Numbered from the stretch's first letter, positions 36,058 through 46,402 are shown. The stretch is DNA of 64,000 bases from Candidatus Bathyarchaeota archaeon (GCA_963807605.1 CAWECG010000004.1:384001-448000), one strand, 5' to 3'. The notes: a model not told the origin generated them from the letters alone. A program made the numbers and translations.

Positions 36058-36537
36058 ATGGGTTCTAGCTTGAGTCACAAGGAAGACTCGGAACAGGAAG
36101 TAATCGTTTTCGATTCTGAAAGGTGTACGGGTTGCTCTTACTGTATGATCGCCTGCAGCTTCAAACATTATGGGATGACGGATTTTGAGAAATCACACAT
36201 CAAGATCATTGATGGCCCACAGAGACCAAAGATACGATTTGTGGGGATTCATTGCATACACTGCGATGATCCTCTATGTCTCGCATCGTGCCCTGTAGGA
36301 GCTGTAACCAAAGATAACAACACCGGTCTAGTCAAGATCAATTCCACTATCTGCATTGGCTGTAAAGCCTGTTTAATCGCATGTCCAATCTCAAACCCAA
36401 GCTTCGACGAAGAGAGGCGCGTAGCGGTCAAATGCGACTTCTGTGACGGAGATCCGCAGTGTGTCAAGTTCTGCACGTCAGAGGCACTCACAAGAAGCAG
36501 CAGGGAGAACGCTCGCAAAAGATTCGCGCAGTGTTGA
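36058..36537 (+). CDS. 4x[4Fe-4S] electron-transfer protein (HycB/HydN/CooF/DmsB type)
   Basis: CTGCSYCMIAC, CIHCDDPLCLASCP, CIGCKACLIACP, KCDFCDGDPQCVKFC. Confidence 0.9.
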   Translation: MGSSLSHKEDSEQEVIVFDSERCTGCSYCMIACSFKHYGMTDFEKSHIKIIDGPQRPKIRFVGIHCIHCDDPLCLASCPVGAVTKDNNTGLVKINSTICIGCKACLIACPISNPSFDEERRVAVKCDFCDGDPQCVKFCTSEALTRSSRENARKRFAQC

Positions 36538-36553
36538 GGATGGGTCAACCATA

Positions 36554-36835
36554 ATGTCTGAGGAAGAAAATTTGATCTATCCCCTAAGGAAAAAGGCGAG
36601 GAGTTCGGTCCCCGCCTCATTCCAAGGTGCTGTCACAAATCTCATCAACCAAGGGCAAATCCAGAGTCTCCTAGACTTCTGGATTGATGAGAGGACAGGG
36701 CTCGGTCTTCCCGAGAAACCAGTCTCGGCCTACTCCTCAGAGAAAGCGGTTCAACAGAGTCAAGATATCATCAAGGAGTTGGGATTCGACCGTAGCCTAC
36801 ACTTTGATTGGAAGCAGAAGAGGCTGAAGACATGA
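36554..36835 (+). CDS. Small Cys-free protein resembling the C-terminal region of HdrC
   Basis: ATG at 36554; RTGLGLPEKP...AVQQSQDII.ELGFD..L.FDW pattern; stop overlaps the hdrB start (ATGA). Confidence 0.6.
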   Translation: MSEEENLIYPLRKKARSSVPASFQGAVTNLINQGQIQSLLDFWIDERTGLGLPEKPVSAYSSEKAVQQSQDIIKELGFDRSLHFDWKQKRLKT

Positions 36836-37716
36836 TGAGACGGTCGACATACCGATCGAAGACGATGATGTTCTGGGGTTGTATGATCCCAACCGTTCAG
36901 CCATTTGTGGAGAAGGCTGCACGATTCTCGCTCGAGAGGCTTGGTGTGACATTCCAGGAAATGCCAGATGCGACATGTTGTCCGGATCCAGAGATCTCAA
37001 GAACACTCGGAGGTGACTTGTGGCTGACGTTGGCAGGTCGTAACATATCAATAGCCAATCAGGCCGGTGGGGATATCTGTGTAATCTGCAATGGATGCTT
37101 CGACACCCTGAGCAAAGCAAACTCCGAGCTGAACGTAGACAAGGCTCTGAGTCGGAAAGTCAACGCGACGCTCACAAAGTACGGGGCAAGACACGACGGT
37201 TCAAGCCGAATATTTCACATGATTGAGTACCTCCACGACATAGTCGGCCTCGAAGCCATCCAAGAGAAGGTCATCAGATCTCTCTCAGGCCTCAATTGCG
37301 CCCCCCAGTACGGCTGCCGCATACTAAGAGAGAAGCTGGACTTACGTGCAAAGTTTGACGACCTTATCACAGTTCTCGGAGGGCGACTGATCCATACGGA
37401 GACAGAGAGGCTTTGTTGCGGAGTGCCAGCGATGTATGCCAATCCTGACTTTTCACTCCACCAAAGAGCCAAGGTAAAACTTGAAGAGATCAAAGAATCG
37501 AAAGCAGACTGCGTAACCCTCTTCTGTCCAGCATGCGCCGAGAGGCTCGAAAGAGCCCAGATGACACTCAGAAATGATGGATACAACTTCGACATCCCCG
37601 TGGTAAATTACCTGGAGCTGCTTGCACTATGCTTGGGAGCCTCATCTTCAGAAATCGGTACACATCTTCACAGAATATCACTTGACCCAATCGTGGGGAG
37701 GATCCTGAAGACCTAA
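36832..37716 (+). CDS. hdrB: Heterodisulfide reductase subunit B-like protein (two CCG domains)
   Basis: FWGC...TCCP...CNGC and YGC...LCCG...CPAC. Confidence 0.9.
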   Translation: MMRRSTYRSKTMMFWGCMIPTVQPFVEKAARFSLERLGVTFQEMPDATCCPDPEISRTLGGDLWLTLAGRNISIANQAGGDICVICNGCFDTLSKANSELNVDKALSRKVNATLTKYGARHDGSSRIFHMIEYLHDIVGLEAIQEKVIRSLSGLNCAPQYGCRILREKLDLRAKFDDLITVLGGRLIHTETERLCCGVPAMYANPDFSLHQRAKVKLEEIKESKADCVTLFCPACAERLERAQMTLRNDGYNFDIPVVNYLELLALCLGASSSEIGTHLHRISLDPIVGRILKT

Positions 37717-38063
37717 TGAAAATCAGGAGACTCCCTCTAGGCCTCTCGCTTACACTACTTACAGGGGGATCCCTAGGAATCGGGATTGCGCGAACAACGA
37801 TCGAGGTCTTCCTTTGCTCTGAACTGGTCACAATATCCGTTTTTTACATCTTCTTCACAGTCATAATCCCAGCAATACGGCCTTCAAGCGTCGATACGGA
37901 AGCCATCTTTCTCGGAGGACTAGCGAGATCGCCTTACCTTTCAGGATCTGAACTCTTTTCGCCTGGAATACCTGTCATCTCAGAAGACATTGATGATTCT
38001 TGGGAGAATTACTTCGATAGAAACAGACTTGAGCCAAATGAGGAGTCTAAGGAAGAAGCTTGA
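37716..38063 (+). CDS. Small two-TM membrane protein of the hydrogenase operon
   Basis: Two hydrophobic helices and an acidic tail; overlaps both neighbours. Confidence 0.6.
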   Translation: MKIRRLPLGLSLTLLTGGSLGIGIARTTIEVFLCSELVTISVFYIFFTVIIPAIRPSSVDTEAIFLGGLARSPYLSGSELFSPGIPVISEDIDDSWENYFDRNRLEPNEESKEEA

Positions 38064-39604
38064 CAATCGCAGCCCTAGCCCCACCCATAATCCTCACATT
38101 CTCGGCAGTAGCATCAACCGTAATCGGACGCAGATCCATTGCTCGTAGAAATGTCGTAATCGCTTTTTCATTTGTGTCTGCCGTTCTCGTGAATACTTAC
38201 TTTCTTATCCTCTCGCTGAATGGAGGCTTCGGATACGCCAAAATCGGCGAATTTACCGTAAACGCTGCTTCAATCTTCATCTCTGAGCTTGTCCTGGTCC
38301 TAGCTTTTCTAGGAGCCCTTTACAGCTTCAGCTACATTGAGGAGAGATCTGAGACTTGGGCTTACTATCTCCTCTATCAACTCTTCACTGCAATGATGAT
38401 AGCGATGGTCTCAAGCTTCAATGTTCTAGTCATGTATGTCTTCTTGGAGGGAAGCAGCGTAACAAGTGCGATACTTGTGATGTTCAGCAGAAGAAGAAGC
38501 AGCATCCTAGCCGCTTACCGATACCTTGTGCTCAGCATCTTCGGCGGCATCATAATCATAGGAGGAATCTTCTGGCAGTACCAGCTGACTCACACTCTAA
38601 ACTTAGCTGGTCTGGCCAGCCTAGCCAAAACAGATGTGAACTTTCTGGCGACCATTTACCTGCTAGGGTTCGGCGTAAAGGCCGGACTGCTACCCTTCGG
38701 CCTGTTCTGGCTCCCACCGGCGCATAGCGAGGCACCTATCCCCATACATACCCTGTTGAGTGCCGCCCTTGTCCAGGTCGCTGCCTTCGATATAGCGCGA
38801 GTCTTAGGCGGCGTGGGCATTGGAAACATGTACATCTCCAATATGCTCCTAGCAACGGGCCTTGCAAGCATGATCGTCGGCGCACTATACGCACTCATCG
38901 AGGCGTGGTATGGAAGCAAATACACCAGACTTCACGTGGGTCTCCGGCACATTCGTGGAATTAAGAGAGTCTGGGCGTTCTCAACCATCTCGGAAATGGG
39001 TTACATAACCTTGTTTCTGGGATTGGCTGGACTCCTTGCGAACCAGAAAGCGGGGTATGAAGAGGCACTGGTCCTTGGATTTGGTGGTGCTCTCCTCCAC
39101 ATGTACAATCACGGATTCTCAAAAGCTCAACTTCTTTTCGATTCAGGTGTAATGATAAAAGTTAGCCACGCCGAGGATCTCAACCTCATGGGGGCCCTTG
39201 CAAAACGACTCCCCATCATGAAGGTATCTTTCGTAATTGGAGCTCTTAGCCTCGGACTGATCCCCGCCACGTTTGGTGTGAGAACACTCAGAGAACTAGT
39301 TTTCAACAACAACATTCCAAGCCTAGCAAAACTCGTAGTCATAGCCACAGCAGGACTCTCCCTTATTGCATGCCTTTCAGTCTGGTATTGCTGCTTCTTC
39401 TCTAGGTCTAACATCCAATCTGACGATCGCCCCAAGGTCCCGAGAACCATGTACCTGCCCGGCCTCCTAATGGGAGGCCTGATAATTCTTGTCGGAAGTT
39501 ACTTCACGTTAGAATGGGCTGGCTTAATATCATCGGGTTCAAGCCTTACTGATACCCTACGGATTCTCGCCGAGACAACGATTAAGAGTAGCGCGGGGTC
39601 CTAG
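38060..39604 (+). CDS. Antiporter-like ion-translocating subunit (HycC/MrpD/NuoL-M-N family)
   Basis: YVFLE, AAYRYL, GFGVKAG..P...WLPPAH.EAP, AFSTISEMGY, NHGFSKAQL. Confidence 0.92.
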   Translation: MTIAALAPPIILTFSAVASTVIGRRSIARRNVVIAFSFVSAVLVNTYFLILSLNGGFGYAKIGEFTVNAASIFISELVLVLAFLGALYSFSYIEERSETWAYYLLYQLFTAMMIAMVSSFNVLVMYVFLEGSSVTSAILVMFSRRRSSILAAYRYLVLSIFGGIIIIGGIFWQYQLTHTLNLAGLASLAKTDVNFLATIYLLGFGVKAGLLPFGLFWLPPAHSEAPIPIHTLLSAALVQVAAFDIARVLGGVGIGNMYISNMLLATGLASMIVGALYALIEAWYGSKYTRLHVGLRHIRGIKRVWAFSTISEMGYITLFLGLAGLLANQKAGYEEALVLGFGGALLHMYNHGFSKAQLLFDSGVMIKVSHAEDLNLMGALAKRLPIMKVSFVIGALSLGLIPATFGVRTLRELVFNNNIPSLAKLVVIATAGLSLIACLSVWYCCFFSRSNIQSDDRPKVPRTMYLPGLLMGGLIILVGSYFTLEWAGLISSGSSLTDTLRILAETTIKSSAGS

Positions 39605-39605
39605 C

Positions 39606-41282
39606 ATGGAACGTTCTGAAGAGATACTTACCGGACTCAAGCAAAGACTCGGTGCAGACTTCATCTCGGAATCAAGAAGCGCCCCGAACACCTTCTGGAT
39701 TCACATCCAAAGAGGAAGAGTGAGGGAAGTAGCTAGCTATCTTACCAATGAGATCCATGGAAGGCTAAGTCACATCTCAACGATCGACAAGGGCTTGGAT
39801 GGCTACGAGGTCGTATATCATTACGCCCTAGACCACCTTGAAAAATTCCTACACCTGAACCTCAAAGTCCAGCTTCCCATAGACGAAGCTGAAATCGAAT
39901 CCGTCTCCCGGGAAGCTCCGGAGTCGTCCTGGTCGGAGCGAGAGATGATGGAGTTTACTCCAGTACAGTTCAAAGGCCATCCGGATCCCAGGCATCTCTG
40001 GCTACCCTACGAGTGGCCAAACGCTGTTGAGAGTGAAAAGTGTGAACATTTCATCGACAAGGTCGGCGACCCGTCACCGTTAGGAAATTCATCTAGGAAT
40101 GCTGAGGCTACGCTAATACCTCTTGGCCCCTATCATCCTCTGCTCATAGAAGGCGCATACTTCCGAGTGAAAGTTGATGGTGAAGAAATAACAGACGTGG
40201 ATGTGAAATTGGGGTGGAATCACCGAGGAATAATGAAACTCTTTGAGGGGCGCAGCTACACAAGAGGTGTCTTTCTGGCAGAACGGATCTGCGGCATATG
40301 TAATGTTACCCACACCACGGCATATCTGAATGCAGTCGAATCTCTGAGTGGGGCAGAGATCCCTCCTCGCGCACGCTATATTCGAACATTGATGGCTGAA
40401 CTTGAGAGAATTCACAGTCACCTCCTTTGGTTGGGAGTTGCTGGAGACCTGATTGGGTTCAGGACGCTCTTCATGCTCTCTTGGAAGGTGAGAGAACAGG
40501 TACTGGACATTTTCGAGTTGTTGACTGGAAGCAGAAGAGCTCCTGCAATGAACCTTATCGGTGGAGTAAGGAAAGATGTGACTGGCGAAACCTCCACCAA
40601 GATAGAAACGCGTCTTCGTAGCGTAAAGAAGGAAGCGGAGAAACTAATCGAAATAGTCTACAACCACTCGGTTGCGAGAAAGAGGCTTCAAGACATTGGA
40701 AAACTAGATCTTGACACGGCAAGGAAAACCGGAGTTGTAGGACCCACTGCGCGAGCCAGTGGATGGAAACTCGATACTCGCTTGTCAAGCCCCTACGCAG
40801 CATACGCGGCTGAATACACAACATGGGATGTCGTGACCGATGACGGAGGGGATGTCTGGGCTAGGACAGTCGTTCGACTAAAGGAGATTATCGTCTCGAT
40901 CAGCATAATTCTACAATGCCTTGAGGGGCTGGACCGCGTAAGCGGAGGAATACTGAGTGAGCCTGTCGATCCTAAAGACTTCAAACTGACTGAGGCCATC
41001 GGAAAGGCTGAGGCGCCAAGAGGCGAACTTTTCTACTATATCGTGTCAGACGGAACAAACATACCCCATAGCGTACGAATAAGAACCCCGAGCTTCAGAA
41101 ATATCTCGATAGTGCCAAGACTTCTGAAAGGACACACGGTTGCAGACGCACCAATAATCGTGGGAAGCATAGACCCTTGTTACTCTTGCACAGACCGCGT
41201 AGTAATTGTGAAAGACTCACCATCAGACTCTTCAAACAAATTTCTGCCTGACACGAATCGGAAGGGAGTGAAATGGCCGTAG
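39606..41282 (+). CDS. Group 4 [NiFe]-hydrogenase large subunit, fused NuoC+NuoD (HycE-like)
   Basis: ERE...F.GHPDPR (NuoC part); GPYHP, HRG, ERICGIC (L1), EAPRGE, DPCYSCTDR (L2) plus a C-terminal extension. Confidence 0.95.
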   Translation: MERSEEILTGLKQRLGADFISESRSAPNTFWIHIQRGRVREVASYLTNEIHGRLSHISTIDKGLDGYEVVYHYALDHLEKFLHLNLKVQLPIDEAEIESVSREAPESSWSEREMMEFTPVQFKGHPDPRHLWLPYEWPNAVESEKCEHFIDKVGDPSPLGNSSRNAEATLIPLGPYHPLLIEGAYFRVKVDGEEITDVDVKLGWNHRGIMKLFEGRSYTRGVFLAERICGICNVTHTTAYLNAVESLSGAEIPPRARYIRTLMAELERIHSHLLWLGVAGDLIGFRTLFMLSWKVREQVLDIFELLTGSRRAPAMNLIGGVRKDVTGETSTKIETRLRSVKKEAEKLIEIVYNHSVARKRLQDIGKLDLDTARKTGVVGPTARASGWKLDTRLSSPYAAYAAEYTTWDVVTDDGGDVWARTVVRLKEIIVSISIILQCLEGLDRVSGGILSEPVDPKDFKLTEAIGKAEAPRGELFYYIVSDGTNIPHSVRIRTPSFRNISIVPRLLKGHTVADAPIIVGSIDPCYSCTDRVVIVKDSPSDSSNKFLPDTNRKGVKWP

Positions 41283-42286
41283 GAAACCTGTTCGCGATGA
41301 CTTCTTTAGCGGGCATTATACTTGTGCCTCTCGCAAGCTTCTTCCTGGGCGTAATCTATAGCTATGAGATACGGAAGATCTCGGCCCGACTCCAATCGAG
41401 GAGTGGCCCGTGGCTTCTTGTTCCCAAGTCTCTCAGACATGCTCTCGGCACAACTAGGATTTTCCAGCCTCTCTTTGACATCCTCAAGCTGCTCTACAAG
41501 GAATCTCTGGTTCCTCACACCGCCAAGACCAGACTCTTTCGATTAGCACCCTACACTGGTCTGATCTGTTTGGTCGCCGCCGCCACTCTGATACCCTTTG
41601 CCGGCTACTCGCCCTTTGCCTCTTTCGAACTCAGCCTTGTCGCTGTTTTGTATCTCCTTCTAGGCGTCCCCTTCGCATCCATACTGGGCGGTGCTGCGAG
41701 CTCCTCACCTTGGGGAGTGCTGGGAAGTCAGAGGGAGGCAGAGCTGATGCTGGCATGTGAGACACCCCTTGCTATCGGAGCATTTACCGCCGCAGTAATG
41801 GCTAACACTCTATCAATACAGAAGATCCTCAGCGTACAGATATCCTGGTACCCCTTCCTGATTCTGAACCCATTTGCAGCGGCCGCCTTCCTACTCGCAA
41901 TCGTCGGCAAACTCCATCTCAAACCATTCGACATGCCTGAGGCCGAAGTTGAGATCGTGGCAGGACCGACAACGGAGTACAGTGGAAGTCTGCTTGGAAT
42001 CATTGAGATAGGTAAGGTTCTTCTGATCTCAGTCATCGTAACTCTCTTCATCGACCTGTTCTTGGCAGGCGGATTCATACTAGGGCTTGAATATCCCCTG
42101 AGGACTCTCGCATTCGTTATCGAAGGCATTGTGATCATTTCCTTGATCGCTCTCATACACACGCTGAACCCTCGGTTCAGGATCGATCAGGCCTTAGCAT
42201 GGTATGTGAAGGGCCCCACAGTTCTAGCTGCAGTAGGACTAGCTTGGGCCTACGTCCTACGATACTTATACCCAGCCATCCTGTGA
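41273..42286 (+). CDS. Hydrogenase membrane subunit (HycD/NuoH/EchB)
   Basis: RKISARLQSR.GP, QPLFDILKLL.KE, PFDMPEAE.EIVAG...EYSG, PRFR. Confidence 0.93.
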   Translation: MAVGNLFAMTSLAGIILVPLASFFLGVIYSYEIRKISARLQSRSGPWLLVPKSLRHALGTTRIFQPLFDILKLLYKESLVPHTAKTRLFRLAPYTGLICLVAAATLIPFAGYSPFASFELSLVAVLYLLLGVPFASILGGAASSSPWGVLGSQREAELMLACETPLAIGAFTAAVMANTLSIQKILSVQISWYPFLILNPFAAAAFLLAIVGKLHLKPFDMPEAEVEIVAGPTTEYSGSLLGIIEIGKVLLISVIVTLFIDLFLAGGFILGLEYPLRTLAFVIEGIVIISLIALIHTLNPRFRIDQALAWYVKGPTVLAAVGLAWAYVLRYLYPAIL

Positions 42287-42296
42287 GGTTGCAACG

Positions 42297-42875
42297 GTGA
42301 AATCGGGCTTAACCAAGCTTACCAGAGTACTCATCGGGAACGTCTTTCGCCCCGTTACTGTGGACTACCCAGTGAAAAGTCAACAAGTCGGAGATGTTAC
42401 CATTAACCAAGAGGAGGCTAGAGGGAAACATAGCTTCGATGACGAAAAGTGCATCGGGTGCGGAGCCTGTACCGTCGTATGTTCCAGTGGCGCAATCACA
42501 GAATCAGATGTGCAATTTGAGAGGAGCCTAAAGGTAGAGCTCGGTCGGTGCATATTCTGCGGGAGATGTCGCGACATCTGTCCTGAGAAAGGACTTGAAT
42601 TGACACCTCAATTTGAACTCTCCCAGACCGGAAAGGGTGCAGAAGATTCAATAAAAGTTGAACATACGATCCAGCTTGGAAAATGCGAAAGCTGCGGTCG
42701 AGCAACCTTTCCAATGAAACAGATAGACACGGTCGTCAAGAGAGCTCTTGAGAAGATAGATCTAGCGAACAAGATAACTGCCGGCAGGGACATGGAAGTC
42801 TACGTGAGATATTGCTCTGACTGTCGAAGAACCCAGAGTTACCTCCTGAATATTCACCCACGCAAATCGTACTAG
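42297..42875 (+). CDS. Hydrogenase 2x[4Fe-4S] subunit (HycF/NuoI)
   Basis: CIGCGACTVVC and CIFCGRCRDICP, plus HycF-like C-terminal CESC...CSDC. Confidence 0.92.
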   Translation: MKSGLTKLTRVLIGNVFRPVTVDYPVKSQQVGDVTINQEEARGKHSFDDEKCIGCGACTVVCSSGAITESDVQFERSLKVELGRCIFCGRCRDICPEKGLELTPQFELSQTGKGAEDSIKVEHTIQLGKCESCGRATFPMKQIDTVVKRALEKIDLANKITAGRDMEVYVRYCSDCRRTQSYLLNIHPRKSY

Positions 42876-42890
42876 ACCCACGGTGAGATT

Positions 42891-43340
42891 GTGAGGCTCG
42901 ATCTGAAAGGTAAGGTACGTTCATATTCACCTTGGATCTTCCACGCCCATGCTGGTGGCTGCAACAATTGCGATATCGAGCTGGCTGCATGTTTTGCTCC
43001 GCGCTTCGACCTCGAGAGGATGGGTGTTCAACTTAGAAACAACCCTCGCCACGCAGACATATTTCTGGTAACGGGACCCGCGCCAAAGCAGATCGCCCCA
43101 ATTCTACAGCGGATATACAGTCAAGTACCTAACCCGAAGGTCACGATCGCGTGCGGATCTTGCGCCATCACTGGCGGGATATACAACCGCGACGACGGAA
43201 AAGCAAACTACGCACTTGGCGGTCCAATAGAGAAACTCATTCCCGTCGATGTCTTGATTCCCGGATGCCCACCAAGACCAGAATCTATAATAGAAGGCCT
43301 CATGTTAGCTTTGGAAAAGCTTAGGAAGAAGACGACTTGA
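42891..43340 (+). CDS. Hydrogenase small subunit (HycG/NuoB/EchC)
   Basis: GGCNNCDIE, PRHAD, GSCA..GG, PGCPPRP. Confidence 0.94.
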   Translation: MRLDLKGKVRSYSPWIFHAHAGGCNNCDIELAACFAPRFDLERMGVQLRNNPRHADIFLVTGPAPKQIAPILQRIYSQVPNPKVTIACGSCAITGGIYNRDDGKANYALGGPIEKLIPVDVLIPGCPPRPESIIEGLMLALEKLRKKTT

Positions 43341-43365
43341 GATTCCTAGGCAGGTGATTTTTTAA

Positions 43366-43800
43366 TTGGTCAAAGTTGATGAATTCGACTTACCAGACGA
43401 ACTGTACTACCTCGAAGAGGGAAGAAGCTGGGCAAAGGTCGAGCCTGATGGTAACGTGCGGGTCGGACTCTCTGACATAGCCATCAAGATGGCAGCGGAT
43501 ATAATCTACATACGCCTCAAGCCAAAGGGTGCAGTCGTCGAGCGGGGTAAAGGCTTCGGAACAATGGAAAGCTCAAAATGGGTTGGACCTCTCAAATCAC
43601 CAGTATCAGGAACAATAATCAGCGTCAATGAAGTGCTAACCAAGAATCCAAGCGTGATGGTGAAAGACTCGTATGGCGGAGGGTGGACCGTGATCATCCA
43701 ACCGACAAACCTAGAGAATGACATAAAGGGTCTTCTTCATACGCCCGAACAACTCACCGCATGGGCGACAAAGGAAAAGGCGAACCTTCAGAAAAAATAG
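43366..43800 (+). CDS. Glycine-cleavage H-like lipoyl-carrier protein
   Basis: LYY....W, VRVGLSD.A, GTMESSKWVG (lipoyl-Lys position), SPVSG...VN, DSYGGGW. Confidence 0.9.
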   Translation: MVKVDEFDLPDELYYLEEGRSWAKVEPDGNVRVGLSDIAIKMAADIIYIRLKPKGAVVERGKGFGTMESSKWVGPLKSPVSGTIISVNEVLTKNPSVMVKDSYGGGWTVIIQPTNLENDIKGLLHTPEQLTAWATKEKANLQKK

Positions 43801-43861
43801 AGCAATGCCGATGAAACGGTAAGCAACTTCATCAACAATAGATTCTTGCCGGACATCTAAG

Positions 43862-45244
43862 ATGAATAAGGAACAAGTAGACGAGCTCGCCTCGATTGTC
43901 GGGCCGCAGAACGTATCCACCGAGATTCTTGAATTAGAGGTCTATTCACGCGACCCTACGGTCGTCAGGGGAATAGCGGAGGCCGTAGTCTGGCCCATAG
44001 ACGCTGAACAAATAAGTAAGGTCATGGCATTTGCCAACAAGACCAAGATTCCTATCTACCCAAGAGGGGCGGGAAGCAGCCTCTGTGGCGGCCCAGTCCC
44101 TCTGGAACGTGGAATCGTTCTCTCCCTCGAGAGGATGAATAAGATCCTTGAGATAGACGTTGAGAACCTCCAATTTCTAGCCGAGGCGGGCGCGAGCATC
44201 CGGGAGATAAACGACGCACTCAAACCCCTCAATCTGTTCATTCCGCCCGACCCTGCCAGTGAGGTAGCATGCACGATAGGAGGATGCGTCGCAAATAATG
44301 CCGGTGGCATCCATGCGGTGAAATATGGCACCTTTAAGGACTGGGTTCTAGGCGTTGAGCTGGTCTTACCCACTGGGGAGATAGTCTCGACAGGAACAAA
44401 GACGAGGAAGAGCGTCTCTGGGTATGATCTGACGGGCCTAATAACGGGTTCCGAGGGGACTCTGGCAGTCATAACCAAGGTCCGGGCAAGAGTTGTAGCA
44501 GTTCCGGAGAGTCGAATGGTAACCACCGCATACTTCAACACTGCCGAAGATGCCGGCAGAGCATCGTTCAAGATAATGGTCAGAGGCCTCAATCCCTCTG
44601 CAATCGAACTCCTTGACAAGACTACTATGCAGACAATCTCACAGTACCTGACGATGAAGTTGCCACCAGCTGGTGCAATGCTCATCTTGGAATTTGATGG
44701 CCCCCGAGGTGACGTCGATTACCGAATGGGTGTGGCAGAGAACATCTGCAAAGAGGAGGGGGTGATAGAAGTCAAGGTCTCTGCTACAGAGGACGAGAGC
44801 TTAAGCCTTTGGAGTGCTAGGAAAACCGCCTTTCAGTCTCTGGCTGTCCTAGGCAAGACATCAATCCTGATAGAAGACATCACGGTGCCTATCAGCAGAG
44901 TCCCTGAGATGCTCCGCCACATACATGAGATAGCTGAGAAATACGCAATATTAGTCCCAACATTCGGTCATGTTGGAGATGGGAATCTCCATCCCCACGT
45001 ACTCTACGACGAAGAGAACCGAGATGAGTACGACAAGGCCATGGCGGCCACGGACGAGATCTTCAAGACGGCCGTGGAACTTGATGGGACTATATCAGGT
45101 GAACATGGAATAGGCGTACTCAAGAAAAAGTTCTTTCCCCTCGAACACGATTCAATAGAGACAGCCGTAATGAAGAGGATCAAAAAGCTCTTCGATCCCA
45201 ACAATATCCTAAATCCACATAAAATCTTCCCAGAAGAGGAGTGA
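43862..45244 (+). CDS. FAD-linked 2-hydroxyacid dehydrogenase (GlcD / D-lactate dehydrogenase family)
   Basis: PRGAGSSL.GG, PDPAS...TIGG, GYDL...GSEGTL, GHVGDGNLH, GEHGIG, NPHKI. Confidence 0.93.
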   Translation: MNKEQVDELASIVGPQNVSTEILELEVYSRDPTVVRGIAEAVVWPIDAEQISKVMAFANKTKIPIYPRGAGSSLCGGPVPLERGIVLSLERMNKILEIDVENLQFLAEAGASIREINDALKPLNLFIPPDPASEVACTIGGCVANNAGGIHAVKYGTFKDWVLGVELVLPTGEIVSTGTKTRKSVSGYDLTGLITGSEGTLAVITKVRARVVAVPESRMVTTAYFNTAEDAGRASFKIMVRGLNPSAIELLDKTTMQTISQYLTMKLPPAGAMLILEFDGPRGDVDYRMGVAENICKEEGVIEVKVSATEDESLSLWSARKTAFQSLAVLGKTSILIEDITVPISRVPEMLRHIHEIAEKYAILVPTFGHVGDGNLHPHVLYDEENRDEYDKAMAATDEIFKTAVELDGTISGEHGIGVLKKKFFPLEHDSIETAVMKRIKKLFDPNNILNPHKIFPEEE

Positions 45245-45247
45245 CCC

Positions 45248-46402
45248 TTGAACTTCAGGCCGACTCTTGGCAAAGAATTGAGCTACGAACTGAACAAGTG
45301 CTTCAGATGCGGTTTCTGCAGAAGCCAGTGTCCCATCTACCAATCGAAGCAGAATGAGACATGGAATGCACGAGGAAGAATGATGACCGTCCAGCTTATG
45401 AGAGAGGGAAAGTTGGGACTGGATGAAAAAGTGCTTGACCGGATCTACACATGCGCCCTATGCAAAGCATGTGAGAAGATTTGCCCCGGACTGGTAAAAG
45501 TCACAGATATCGTTAGAGAAGTCAGACGCCAACTTGTTGAGATCAATAGCGGGCCTCTTCCTGAACACCTTAAGATGTCGGAGAACATCGCTTCCACAAA
45601 GAACATCTTGGCTATGAAATCGAGAACTCCCGAACTCCAAGGAGCTATTGACAGGCTGCCCAAGACGGCCGACACAATCGTATTCATGGGATGCGTAGCC
45701 CAATACGTCTATCCCAAGCACCTGACCGCACTCTTCAAGATACTAGAAAAAACAAAGACAGAATTCACAGTCCTAAATGACGAACTCTGCTGCGGAAGCT
45801 TCCTAGCCGAACTCGGCCTGACGAAGGAAGCAAAGAATGTTCTGACGGAGACAGCCAACTCGCTTAGAGAGTGGGATGTTAAGAGAATAGTCACCCTATG
45901 TCCAATGTGCTACAACACGTTCAAGAATGACCTTCCCAAGCTGGAGATCACACCAGCCATCAAGGTCCAACACTCGACACAACTACTGGAGGAAGCCCTC
46001 ACAAAAGGAACCCTCAAGCTCTCATCGCCGGTGAAGATGAAGCTGGCTTACAAAGATCCATGCCACCTTGGAAGATACGCCGAAGTCTACGATACGCCTA
46101 GGAACATACTCAAAATGATCGACGGGGTAGAACTCGTCGAGTTAGATCGGACCAAAGAATTTGCGAGATGCTGCGGAGGAACCATAAGAATTCCCTACTC
46201 CGAATTACGGAATGATCTGTGCAAGAACTTCTTCGATGAGGTCTTGAAGTCTAAGGTTGAGGGTGTCGTTACATCATGCCCCTCCTGCTTCCACAACCTC
46301 TACTCAACAGCACCTTACGAGATAAAAGGCATATTCGACATCCACGAGATTCTTGCTCACGCACTCGGCACACTTGAGAAGATCCCATCTTACGAGTATT
46401 AG
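45248..46402 (+). CDS. Fe-S/CCG-domain protein (GlcF/HdrD-like)
   Basis: CFRCGFCRSQCP, CALCKACEKICP, FMGC, CCG, CPMC, DPCHLGR, CCGG, CPSC. Confidence 0.92.
   Translation: MNFRPTLGKELSYELNKCFRCGFCRSQCPIYQSKQNETWNARGRMMTVQLMREGKLGLDEKVLDRIYTCALCKACEKICPGLVKVTDIVREVRRQLVEINSGPLPEHLKMSENIASTKNILAMKSRTPELQGAIDRLPKTADTIVFMGCVAQYVYPKHLTALFKILEKTKTEFTVLNDELCCGSFLAELGLTKEAKNVLTETANSLREWDVKRIVTLCPMCYNTFKNDLPKLEITPAIKVQHSTQLLEEALTKGTLKLSSPVKMKLAYKDPCHLGRYAEVYDTPRNILKMIDGVELVELDRTKEFARCCGGTIRIPYSELRNDLCKNFFDEVLKSKVEGVVTSCPSCFHNLYSTAPYEIKGIFDIHEILAHALGTLEKIPSYEY

Follow-up and report, generated by a model that had tools for sequence, protein, structure and literature searches.

A predicted LbpA-like lipoyl carrier encoded between an HdrB-linked [NiFe]-hydrogenase and a GlcD-HdrD-type dehydrogenase in a Bathyarchaeial operon

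Organization of the operon

The window analysed here is a 64,000-nucleotide stretch of a Candidatus Bathyarchaeota genome (G000, contig C4, positions 384001-448000), and its proteins have close homologues in Bathyarchaeia/Bathyarchaeota MAGs. The genome comprises 2.65 Mb in five contigs and is 94% complete. At 36058-46402 on the plus strand of the window lie 12 co-directional genes that overlap or are separated by at most 61 nt (Table 1). This operon is flanked by an RsmB-like gene 172 nt upstream and by a convergent arginase-family gene downstream.

Table 1. Genes of the operon, in order of transcription (coordinates of the window)
Feature	Coordinates	Strand	Evidence
HycB/DmsB-like polyferredoxin, 159 aa, 17 Cys	36058..36537	+	Pfam Fer4_11, Fer4_7
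Cys-free 93-aa protein corresponding to the HdrC C-terminal tail	36554..36835	+	phmmer: 5odc_C residues 137-183, E 1.3e-5
HdrB-like subunit, two complete CCG domains	36808..37716	+	Pfam CCG x2; 5odc_B full length, E 3.7e-45
Small hydrophobic membrane protein, 115 aa	37716..38063	+	no family match (Pfam, NCBIfam)
NuoL/M/N- or Mrp-type antiporter-like subunit	38060..39604	+	Pfam Proton_antipo_M, E 1e-30
Fused NuoC-NuoD / HycE-like [NiFe]-hydrogenase large subunit	39606..41282	+	Pfam Complex1_30kDa, Complex1_49kDa, NiFeSe_Hases
NuoH/HycD-like membrane subunit	41273..42286	+	Pfam NADHdh, E 3e-60
NuoI/HycF-like 2x[4Fe-4S] subunit	42297..42875	+	Pfam Fer4 families; NF009053 (formate hydrogenlyase Fe-S subunit), 104 bits
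NuoB/HycG-like hydrogenase small subunit	42891..43340	+	Pfam Oxidored_q6, E 4.5e-30
Predicted Cys-less LbpA-like lipoyl carrier (GCV_H fold)	43366..43800	+	Pfam, alignment, AF2 model, tree; Lys71 codon 43576-43578
GlcD-type FAD-dependent 2-hydroxyacid (probably D-lactate) dehydrogenase	43862..45244	+	Pfam FAD_binding_4, FAD-oxidase_C
HdrD/GlcF-like subunit, two [4Fe-4S] motifs then two CCG domains	45248..46402	+	Pfam Fer4_8, CCG x2

The match of the 93-aa protein covers the last 47 residues of HdrC, and three more HdrC chains were matched by phmmer as well. For the HdrB-like subunit the longest ORF, from 36808, is given; an alternative start, the ATG at 36832, shares bases with the stop codon of the preceding ORF. 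With 201 bits this protein stays under the cut-off of TIGR03288, and all ten CCG-type cysteines are present in its sequence. Five other loci (L017, L018, L022, L044 and L152) likewise have a polyferredoxin directly 5′ of HdrB and keep the 115-aa membrane protein; at the position equivalent to the 93-aa HdrC-tail protein, L044 has an 88-aa ORF. Both Ni-binding motifs (RICGIC and DPCYSC) are kept in the hydrogenase large subunit, whose best PDB matches are HycE (7z0s_E, E 1.7e-85) and MbhL (6cfw_L). GlcD scores 457 bits against TIGR00387, under the cut-off, and the solved structure that it matches best is LctD, from the lactate dehydrogenase of A. woodii (7qh2_C, E 1.4e-84). The cysteine motifs of the HdrD/GlcF-like subunit are present in its sequence. 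None of the 12 genes codes for a lipoate ligase.

The carrier is a GCV_H-fold protein with an intact lipoyl-Lys. Its ORF starts with TTG, about 8 nt 3′ of a Shine-Dalgarno-like AGGTGAT, and encodes 144 aa with a Pfam GCV_H match (E 1.1e-30). The AF2 model (pLDDT 94.4) superimposes on the lipoylated E. coli H-protein 3ab9, the top Foldseek match, with TM-scores of 0.83/0.94. In the alignment, Lys71 (MESSKWVGP) occupies the lipoyl-Lys position of solved H-proteins, and this residue and its hairpin are unchanged across 25 relatives. An initial reading of the DNA, made from the sequence alone (hereafter the sequence-only reading), had described the lipoylation-site lysine as intact (ESSKWVG), the protein as free of cysteine and the gene as lying between the hydrogenase small subunit and glcD. 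All of this holds: there is no Cys among the 144 residues, and the gene begins 25 nt after the NuoB/HycG-like gene and ends 61 nt before GlcD. The carrier has a net charge of 0 and a pI of 6.6, against a median of -17 and a pI of 4.1 for context-verified GcvHs. A PDB sequence search with the carrier returned canonical GcvHs only and no solved LbpA.

Placement of the carrier within the GcvH family

The carrier scores under both NCBIfam GcvH cut-offs, with 83.8 against TIGR00527 (cut-off 115.85) and 106.8 against NF002270 (cut-off 117). Scanning the genome collection for the clade pattern K[WY]VG[PS] gave 80 loci. The bacterial matches have cysteines at about positions 7-9 and 144-147, and the archaeal matches, including the carrier, are missing both. 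Such a pair of cysteines near the N- and C-termini is the hallmark of LbpA, although some LbpAs of archaea do without it (Cao et al., 2018; PMC6067878). The suggestion in the sequence-only reading that the ESxKWVG variant resembles LbpA-type proteins was borne out, in that the signature E[ST]xKW[VA]GP is common to the carrier and to bacterial proteins that possess both LbpA cysteines and are encoded in shdr-lbpA clusters. One of these, from Saprospiraceae, belongs to a textbook shdr-lbpA cluster (DsrE, LbpA, HdrC1, HdrB1, HdrA, hyp, HdrC2B2, LbpA, radical-SAM, Lpl).

A careful IQ-TREE phylogeny was built from 56 rows, of which 17 lie on the canonical side; its canonical references were the GcvHs of E. 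coli, Halobellus, Pseudochrobactrum and Priestia and five Bathyarchaeia gcvH products whose genes adjoin gcvT/P. A 100/99 branch, found in 100% of the bootstrap trees, splits off the canonical side, which holds all gcvT/P-linked H-proteins, and the carrier clade lies opposite, together with LbpA. Rooting the tree with the canonical side makes the bacterial two-Cys LbpAs (100/99) sister to an archaeal Cys-less group (84/77), in which the carrier clade (100/99) is nested. Both other GcvH paralogues of the genome fall on the canonical side of a 134-row quick tree, and the solitary one does so again in the 56-row tree. In an AU test on the 134-row quick tree, placing the carrier clade beside the canonical clade was not rejected (p 0.74), the constrained tree being even better; thus, no resolved position is claimed for the carrier clade among the non-canonical members. 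The 56-row tree is used for two conclusions only, namely that the carrier falls outside the canonical clade and that the archaeal and bacterial groups are sisters. Within the non-canonical side, the deep branching order is weakly resolved and not robust, and Cao et al. likewise reported poor deep resolution (2018; PMC6067878).

Signature and phylogeny assign the carrier to the LbpA-like branch of the GcvH family and not to canonical GcvH; the latter assignment was rejected on the sub-cut-off scores, the position outside the canonical clade and the gene content of the genome described below. According to a recent preprint, LbpA and GcvH differ electrostatically (bioRxiv 10.64898/2026.10.01.755906), and the net charge of the carrier fits the direction of this distinction.

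Glycine cleavage and lipoate metabolism in the genome

The carrier is one of three GCV_H genes in the genome. One paralogue, at C3:992.8 kb, is solitary and of the canonical type, and the other, at C3:544 kb, is located inside an operon with ArsR, ferredoxin and four DGC-domain genes. Searches for GcvP (PF02347) and GcvT (PF01571), with positive controls, gave no match either in the window or in the genome as a whole, which is 94% complete. The claim of the sequence-only reading that no gcvP, gcvT or gcvL occurs in the window is therefore upheld, the DLDH-like genes being located outside it. The search for a separate gcvH/P/T set that this reading had proposed thus uncovered two further GcvH paralogues but neither gcvP nor gcvT, and the carrier is not the sole GcvH of a genome with complete gcvP/T. 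The same genome was also searched for mcrA, which was not found.

Related genomes show how the carrier and the glycine cleavage system are distributed. G087, from the same genus, has the carrier orthologue together with gcvPA/PB, as does G146; the missing glycine cleavage system is thus a trait of the genome studied here and not of its genus. G091 has a carrier orthologue without gcvP, and G022 has gcvT-H-PA-PB without a close carrier orthologue. Taken together, these four genomes indicate that the carrier is distributed independently of the glycine cleavage system. Where Bathyarchaeia have this system, a canonical ESVKAVS-type gcvH adjoins gcvT/P.

The lipoate metabolism genes of the genome comprise a LipA over cut-off, four LplA paralogues, two E2 genes and the DLDH-like genes. 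With tblastn, no match in the genome was found for LipS1/2-type radical SAM proteins, HdrA, DsrE or LutB. Given the result for LipS1/2, lipoylation of the carrier would rely on LipA and the LplA paralogues; given that for HdrA, this form of the system does not include a bifurcating HdrABC. Two ligases are candidates for acting on the carrier, encoded at C4:613.7-614.8 kb and C3:296.1-297.2 kb. The former, a 372-aa LplA, is 43% identical to a carrier-adjacent ligase from another archaeal locus. Pairing the carrier with a single one of the four LplA paralogues was given up, since no clear ligase orthology emerged.

Gene neighbourhoods of the carrier across archaea and bacteria

Ten loci in Bathyarchaeia encode orthologues with 70-82% identity to the carrier. 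GlcD follows the carrier in all ten and GlcF comes next in nine (the remaining contig, L014, ends within GlcD). The hydrogenase lies 5′ of the carrier in six of the ten, and the whole Fer4-HdrB-...-GlcF cluster is found in three.

Elsewhere, these modules are again grouped with one another but in a different order. In G063, the order GlcD, GlcF, small TM protein, large subunit, NuoH/I/B, Fer4 and HdrB is found with a KW-type carrier 2.6 kb upstream. In G071, Lpl, carrier, HdrA, HdrB and HdrC are divergent from GlcD-GlcF, and in G097 the carrier stands between HdrB-HdrC and GlcF-GlcD. In a Thermoprotei locus (L044), the carrier and a LutA-like CCG protein are followed by this hydrogenase, accompanied by HdrB, the 88-aa ORF and Fer4. 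The carrier is placed between GlcF-GlcD and LutB-LutA in Desulfurococcaceae (L034), and in Ignisphaera (L027) it follows LutA and LutB and precedes an Lpl ligase; LutA/LutB and a lipoate ligase are flanking genes of the carrier in both Desulfurococcaceae and Ignisphaera. Terraquivivens (L037) pairs three genes of the GcvH family with three that are HdrD-like: the arrangement comprises OsmC-carrier, HdrD-like/GlcD-like/GcvH′, HdrD-like/GcvH″ and an HdrD-like gene with a NarI-like membrane subunit.

Genes within 5 kb of a carrier or GcvH gene were tallied for four sets of loci (Table 2). CCG proteins are encoded within this distance in 41 of 50 archaeal carrier loci, as opposed to one of 20 canonical-type Bathyarchaeia GcvH loci, in a sample chosen by motif and not by context, in which related genomes are non-independent. 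The CCG neighbours of archaeal carriers are often GlcD-GlcF, LutA-LutB, HdrABC or HdrB-hydrogenases. DsrE was found in none of the 50 archaeal carrier loci, versus 18 of the 30 bacterial shdr loci, with sensitivity limited by the bacterial query.

Table 2. Numbers of loci with the named genes within 5 kb of the carrier or GcvH gene
Loci	CCG	GlcD	LutB	Lpl	HdrA	Hydrogenase	DsrE	GcvT/P
10 Bathyarchaeia orthologues	9	10	1			6		
40 other archaeal carrier loci	32	13	16	14	9	5	0	0
30 bacterial loci	26			24	16		18	
20 canonical-type Bathyarchaeia GcvH loci	1			1		2		5

Sampling was also carried out from the side of the dehydrogenase. GlcF is adjacent in 24 of 30 Bathyarchaeia GlcD loci, and the family-f1 orthologues alone have a GcvH-family gene within 1.5 kb of GlcD. 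Most Bathyarchaeia GlcD-GlcF pairs are thus without a GcvH gene at this distance. The notion of GlcD-GlcF and carrier as constant companions was therefore rejected, and GlcD-GlcF does not generally need an adjacent carrier. In the opposite direction, the conserved but rearranged synteny seen in many lineages strongly supports a predicted functional link between the carrier and CCG proteins.

Relation to known systems

The sHdr-associated LbpAs of Hyphomicrobium denitrificans and Thioalkalivibrio (PMC6067878) resemble the carrier in being single-domain lipoyl carriers of the GcvH fold with the E[ST]xKW[VA]GP signature and a strictly conserved lipoyl-Lys. They are also less acidic than GcvH, are encoded beside HdrB/HdrC-type CCG proteins and fall on the same side of the 100/99 branch. 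Unlike them, the carrier is missing the N- and C-terminal cysteine pair, and its operon has no hdrC1B1A-hyp-hdrC2B2 set, adjacent sLpl(AB) or LipS1/S2, having instead only HdrB, the HdrC tail and the HdrD-like subunit. The failure to find HdrA and DsrE in the genome (TusA lying outside the search) is a further difference, as is the host, an anaerobic Bathyarchaeon in which the partners of the carrier are a hydrogenase and a lactate-type dehydrogenase. With canonical GcvH, the carrier shares the fold, the lipoyl-Lys hairpin and the Pfam family; it differs in its scores, clade and lack of acidity, and in that P and T proteins are absent from the genome.

Kohtz et al. described HdrB-interacting group 4 hydrogenases, namely Ehd, Ehe, Drh, Ehg and, in Bathyarchaeia, "Ehd-like" (Kohtz et al., 2022; PMC9723716). 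In the Ehe cluster of Culexarchaeia they found a GcvH and proposed a lipoyl disulfide as a possible partner of HdrB. The operon described here shares with Ehe, Ehd and "Ehd-like" clusters the combination of a membrane [NiFe]-hydrogenase with its Ni-binding Cys motifs, HdrB(C) and one antiporter subunit, and the label "Ehd-like" is applied to it only as a match in gene order to the published description. In contrast to the published Ehd-like clusters, which are described without GcvH, it includes a carrier, and this carrier is LbpA-like and not, as in the Culexarchaeia Ehe, a canonical GcvH. GlcD and HdrD/GlcF are present in place of SdhA, CdhA or HdrA2B2C2, and HdrC is shrunk to a cluster-free tail next to the HycB-like ferredoxin.

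The downstream half of the operon has its own precedents. Pairs of hdrD and glcD are known from Bathyarchaeota, Methanomethyliales and A. fulgidus (PMC6421429), and those of Bathyarchaeota have been read as lactate-linked heterodisulfide reduction (PMC6421429; PMC8407382). LdhAB-1 of Desulfovibrio, a GlcD-type enzyme with a CCG/HdrD-like partner, is discussed in PMC3949148. In these pairs, as here, an FAD dehydrogenase is followed by a subunit with 2x[4Fe-4S] and 2xCCG, and electron transfer "possibly through thiol/disulfide" has been proposed. They differ from the present operon in that here a dedicated lipoyl carrier gene lies directly 5′, a concrete candidate for the thiol/disulfide.

A proposed dithiol/disulfide shuttle

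The following mechanism is proposed. LipA and one of the four LplA paralogues would probably lipoylate the carrier on Lys71, and its lipoamide would serve as a protein-bound dithiol/disulfide redox partner of the noncubane-cluster (CCG) sites encoded on both sides. The first of these sites would be HdrB, which may be wired through the HdrC-tail protein and the HycB-like polyferredoxin to the ion-translocating Ehd-like group 4 [NiFe]-hydrogenase; the second would be the HdrD/GlcF-like subunit of the GlcD-type FAD 2-hydroxyacid (probably D-lactate) dehydrogenase. Overall, a 2-hydroxyacid would be interconverted with a 2-oxoacid and H2, coupled to the ion gradient, with the lipoyl-protein in place of CoM-S-S-CoB, which the mcrA-less organism should not make. 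The analysis establishes the fold, the conserved lysine, the structure of the operon, the recurring synteny with CCG proteins and the exclusion from canonical GcvH; the lipoylation of the carrier, its carriage of electrons rather than sulfur, the identity of the substrate and the direction of the reaction are inferred. That the carrier shuttles dithiol/disulfide between the HdrB-hydrogenase and the HdrD/GlcF-dehydrogenase is considered somewhat probable, at a little better than an even chance. The sequence-only reading had already seen lipoamide as shuttled between these two CCG proteins; the association with CCG proteins has since gained support from synteny, and the specific HdrB-HdrD/GlcF mechanism is still an inference.

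Textbook potentials are about -190 mV for lactate/pyruvate, about -290 mV for lipoamide and -414 mV for H+/H2. At standard potentials, the step from lactate to lipoamide would be uphill by about 100 mV, which counts against the shuttle. On these values, the conversion of lactate to H2 would have to be driven by the ion gradient or take place at very low H2, the situation of syntrophs that oxidise lactate; reduction of a 2-oxoacid by H2 would be exergonic and could pump ions.

Other roles of the carrier have to be weighed against such a shuttle. Among characterised proteins, the carrier is closest to the LbpAs encoded in sulfur-oxidising shdr clusters, which are thought to handle sulfane sulfur (PMC6067878), and it is flanked by HdrB-like and HdrD-like CCG proteins; it could accordingly be a sulfane-sulfur carrier, with dihydrolipoamide binding the sulfur of persulfide or polysulfide, HdrB/HdrD-like sites reducing or oxidising it and H2 or lactate as the redox partner. 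Against this stand the missing pair of LbpA cysteines, the results for DsrE in the archaeal carrier loci (obtained with a bacterial query, TusA and rhodanese being outside the search) and for DsrE and HdrA in the genome, and the recurrence of lactate-type dehydrogenases (GlcD, LutB), not sulfur enzymes, as partners, so that sulfur carriage appears unlikely. The OsmC gene directly 5′ of the carrier in Terraquivivens, seen in this one lineage only, brings up another role, in which the carrier, reduced by H2 or lactate, would supply dithiol reductant to lipoyl-dependent thiol peroxidases of the OsmC/Ohr type or to other disulfide reductions, with no lactate-H2 circuit. A figure legend in the preprint cited above mentions a possible tie of OsmC next to lbpA to reactive-oxygen defence (bioRxiv 10.64898/2026.10.01.755906). 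However, OsmC or peroxidase genes are absent from the operon and from the ten orthologous loci, and both flanking modules are energy-metabolism enzymes, which makes such a supply role quite improbable.

Two further readings are less credible still. It might be an unmodified structural or assembly subunit whose lysine has no redox function, as the want of a lipoate ligase gene in the operon would allow; yet Lys71 and its hairpin are invariant, 14 of 40 other archaeal loci have a lipoate ligase gene no further than 5 kb from the carrier, and the 372-aa LplA resembles one such carrier-adjacent ligase, all of which renders this very improbable. Least credible is an ordinary GcvH, serving glycine cleavage or lipoyl relay and lying beside redox genes by chance, for which there is barely any room. 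Its Pfam domain, the name "glycine cleavage system H protein" borne by close homologues and the gcvPA/PB of the same-genus genome G087 speak for it. Standing against it are the NCBIfam scores and the 100/99 branch, the absence of gcvP/gcvT from the genome, the separate ESVKAVS-type gcvH that Bathyarchaeia glycine cleavage loci have beside gcvT/P, and the failure of the carrier orthologue to track gcvP in G091 and, conversely, in G022.

The dithiol/disulfide shuttle also has a wider, more tentative generalization, one that we would sooner doubt than accept. Cys-less LbpA-like lipoyl proteins may be a general "missing heterodisulfide" of non-methanogenic archaea, that is, a protein-bound dithiol/disulfide pool joining CCG enzymes. 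These could include GlcD-HdrD, LutABC lactate dehydrogenases, HdrABC-type complexes, HdrDE-like membrane reductases and Ehd-type energy-converting hydrogenases. In the operon described here, the pool would join 2-hydroxyacid oxidation to ion-gradient-linked H2 metabolism.

Novelty and implications

With the GcvH-HdrB proposal of Kohtz et al. (2022; PMC9723716), the core idea has been published for a related system. A literature search found no paper tying LbpA to Bathyarchaeia and none tying lipoyl proteins to GlcD-GlcF or LutABC. What is new is a Bathyarchaeial Ehd-like operon that unites the carrier with GlcD-HdrD, the assignment of its carrier as LbpA-like rather than GcvH, and the broad association of the carrier with lactate-dehydrogenase CCG systems in archaea.

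Anaerobes that make neither CoM nor CoB widely possess Hdr-like CCG enzymes, whose disulfide substrate is repeatedly called "unknown" in the literature; for lactate dehydrogenases with CCG domains, the electron acceptor is undefined as well. From this perspective, a small, expressible lipoyl protein encoded between two CCG enzymes offers a concrete candidate substrate. If the proposed role is correct, the carrier would represent a sixth kind of lipoate-dependent system and would explain a link between lactate, H2 and membrane potential in Bathyarchaeia and other sediment archaea. An older role as redox carrier in archaea would then be the suggested origin of the sHdr-LbpA systems of sulfur oxidation.

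Glycine Cleavage Genes of the Source Genome

Across the whole source genome (G000), neither gcvP nor gcvT was found, whereas a solitary canonical-type gcvH is retained on contig C3 at 992.8 kb. Because this gene has been kept without gcvP and gcvT, while gcvPA/PB are present in a genome of the same genus (G087), the pattern suggests that the P and T proteins of G000 were recently lost or are encoded in the missing ~6% of the sequence. A further GcvH paralogue, of 156 aa and with the canonical-type ESTK motif, is the last gene of an operon that also encodes an ArsR regulator, an uncharacterised 133-aa protein, a small ferredoxin, and four DGC-domain proteins in a row; a SAM methyltransferase lies downstream.

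Paralogous Genes and an Apparent HdrC Remnant

G000 holds a second HdrB-containing cluster, paralogous to that of the window, in which both an antiporter-like match and the carrier are absent (see table). In another Bathyarchaeon (G071), a very acidic canonical-type GcvH (ESVKAVSDLV) directly precedes the equivalent cluster. No GcvH-family gene adjoins the other GlcD-GlcF pair or the additional HdrD-like gene of G000; Fer4 and hydrogenase-like matches occur nearby (C1:309-312 kb). Within the window operon, judging from sequence similarity, only the tail of HdrC appears to be left, and a HycB-like four-cluster ferredoxin is encoded upstream, substituting for the HdrC ferredoxin domain.

Coordinates of the features discussed
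Feature	Location	Strand	Remarks
Paralogous Fer4-NuoC-HdrB-NuoD-NuoH-NuoI-NuoB cluster	G000:C4:56051-61220		Outside window; listed jointly with L116:6421-10969
Second GlcD-GlcF pair	G000:C3:15488-17921		41% and 31% identity
Additional HdrD-like gene	G000:C1:313405-314541		
Operon with second GcvH paralogue	L012:6434-9535 (G000:C3 ~541.4-544.5 kb)		
HdrC tail-like protein	Window 36554-36835	+	93 aa, Cys-free; match to HdrC 5odc_C residues 137-183, E 1.3e-5
88-aa ORF	Thermoprotei L044 17937-18203	minus	Position equivalent to HdrC tail
Ca. Terraquivivens tikiterensis locus	L037:9387-19314		
Locus of LbpA-like 'GcvH'	L094:7158-12683		Acidithiobacillus ferrooxidans plasmid NZ_CP040512.1; ESGKWAGG motif; two/three Cys

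Carrier Loci in Other Organisms

The Ca. Terraquivivens tikiterensis locus carries three GcvH-family genes, each beside an HdrD-like partner gene. A single GlcD-like gene and a NarI-like membrane subunit are also encoded there, and the KW-type carrier is immediately preceded by an OsmC gene. The A. ferrooxidans plasmid is 47 kb in size, and its LbpA-like 'GcvH' is surrounded by hemerythrin-domain proteins, a thioredoxin, a globin, an FAD oxidoreductase, and an 'Hdr-related iron-sulfur' protein.
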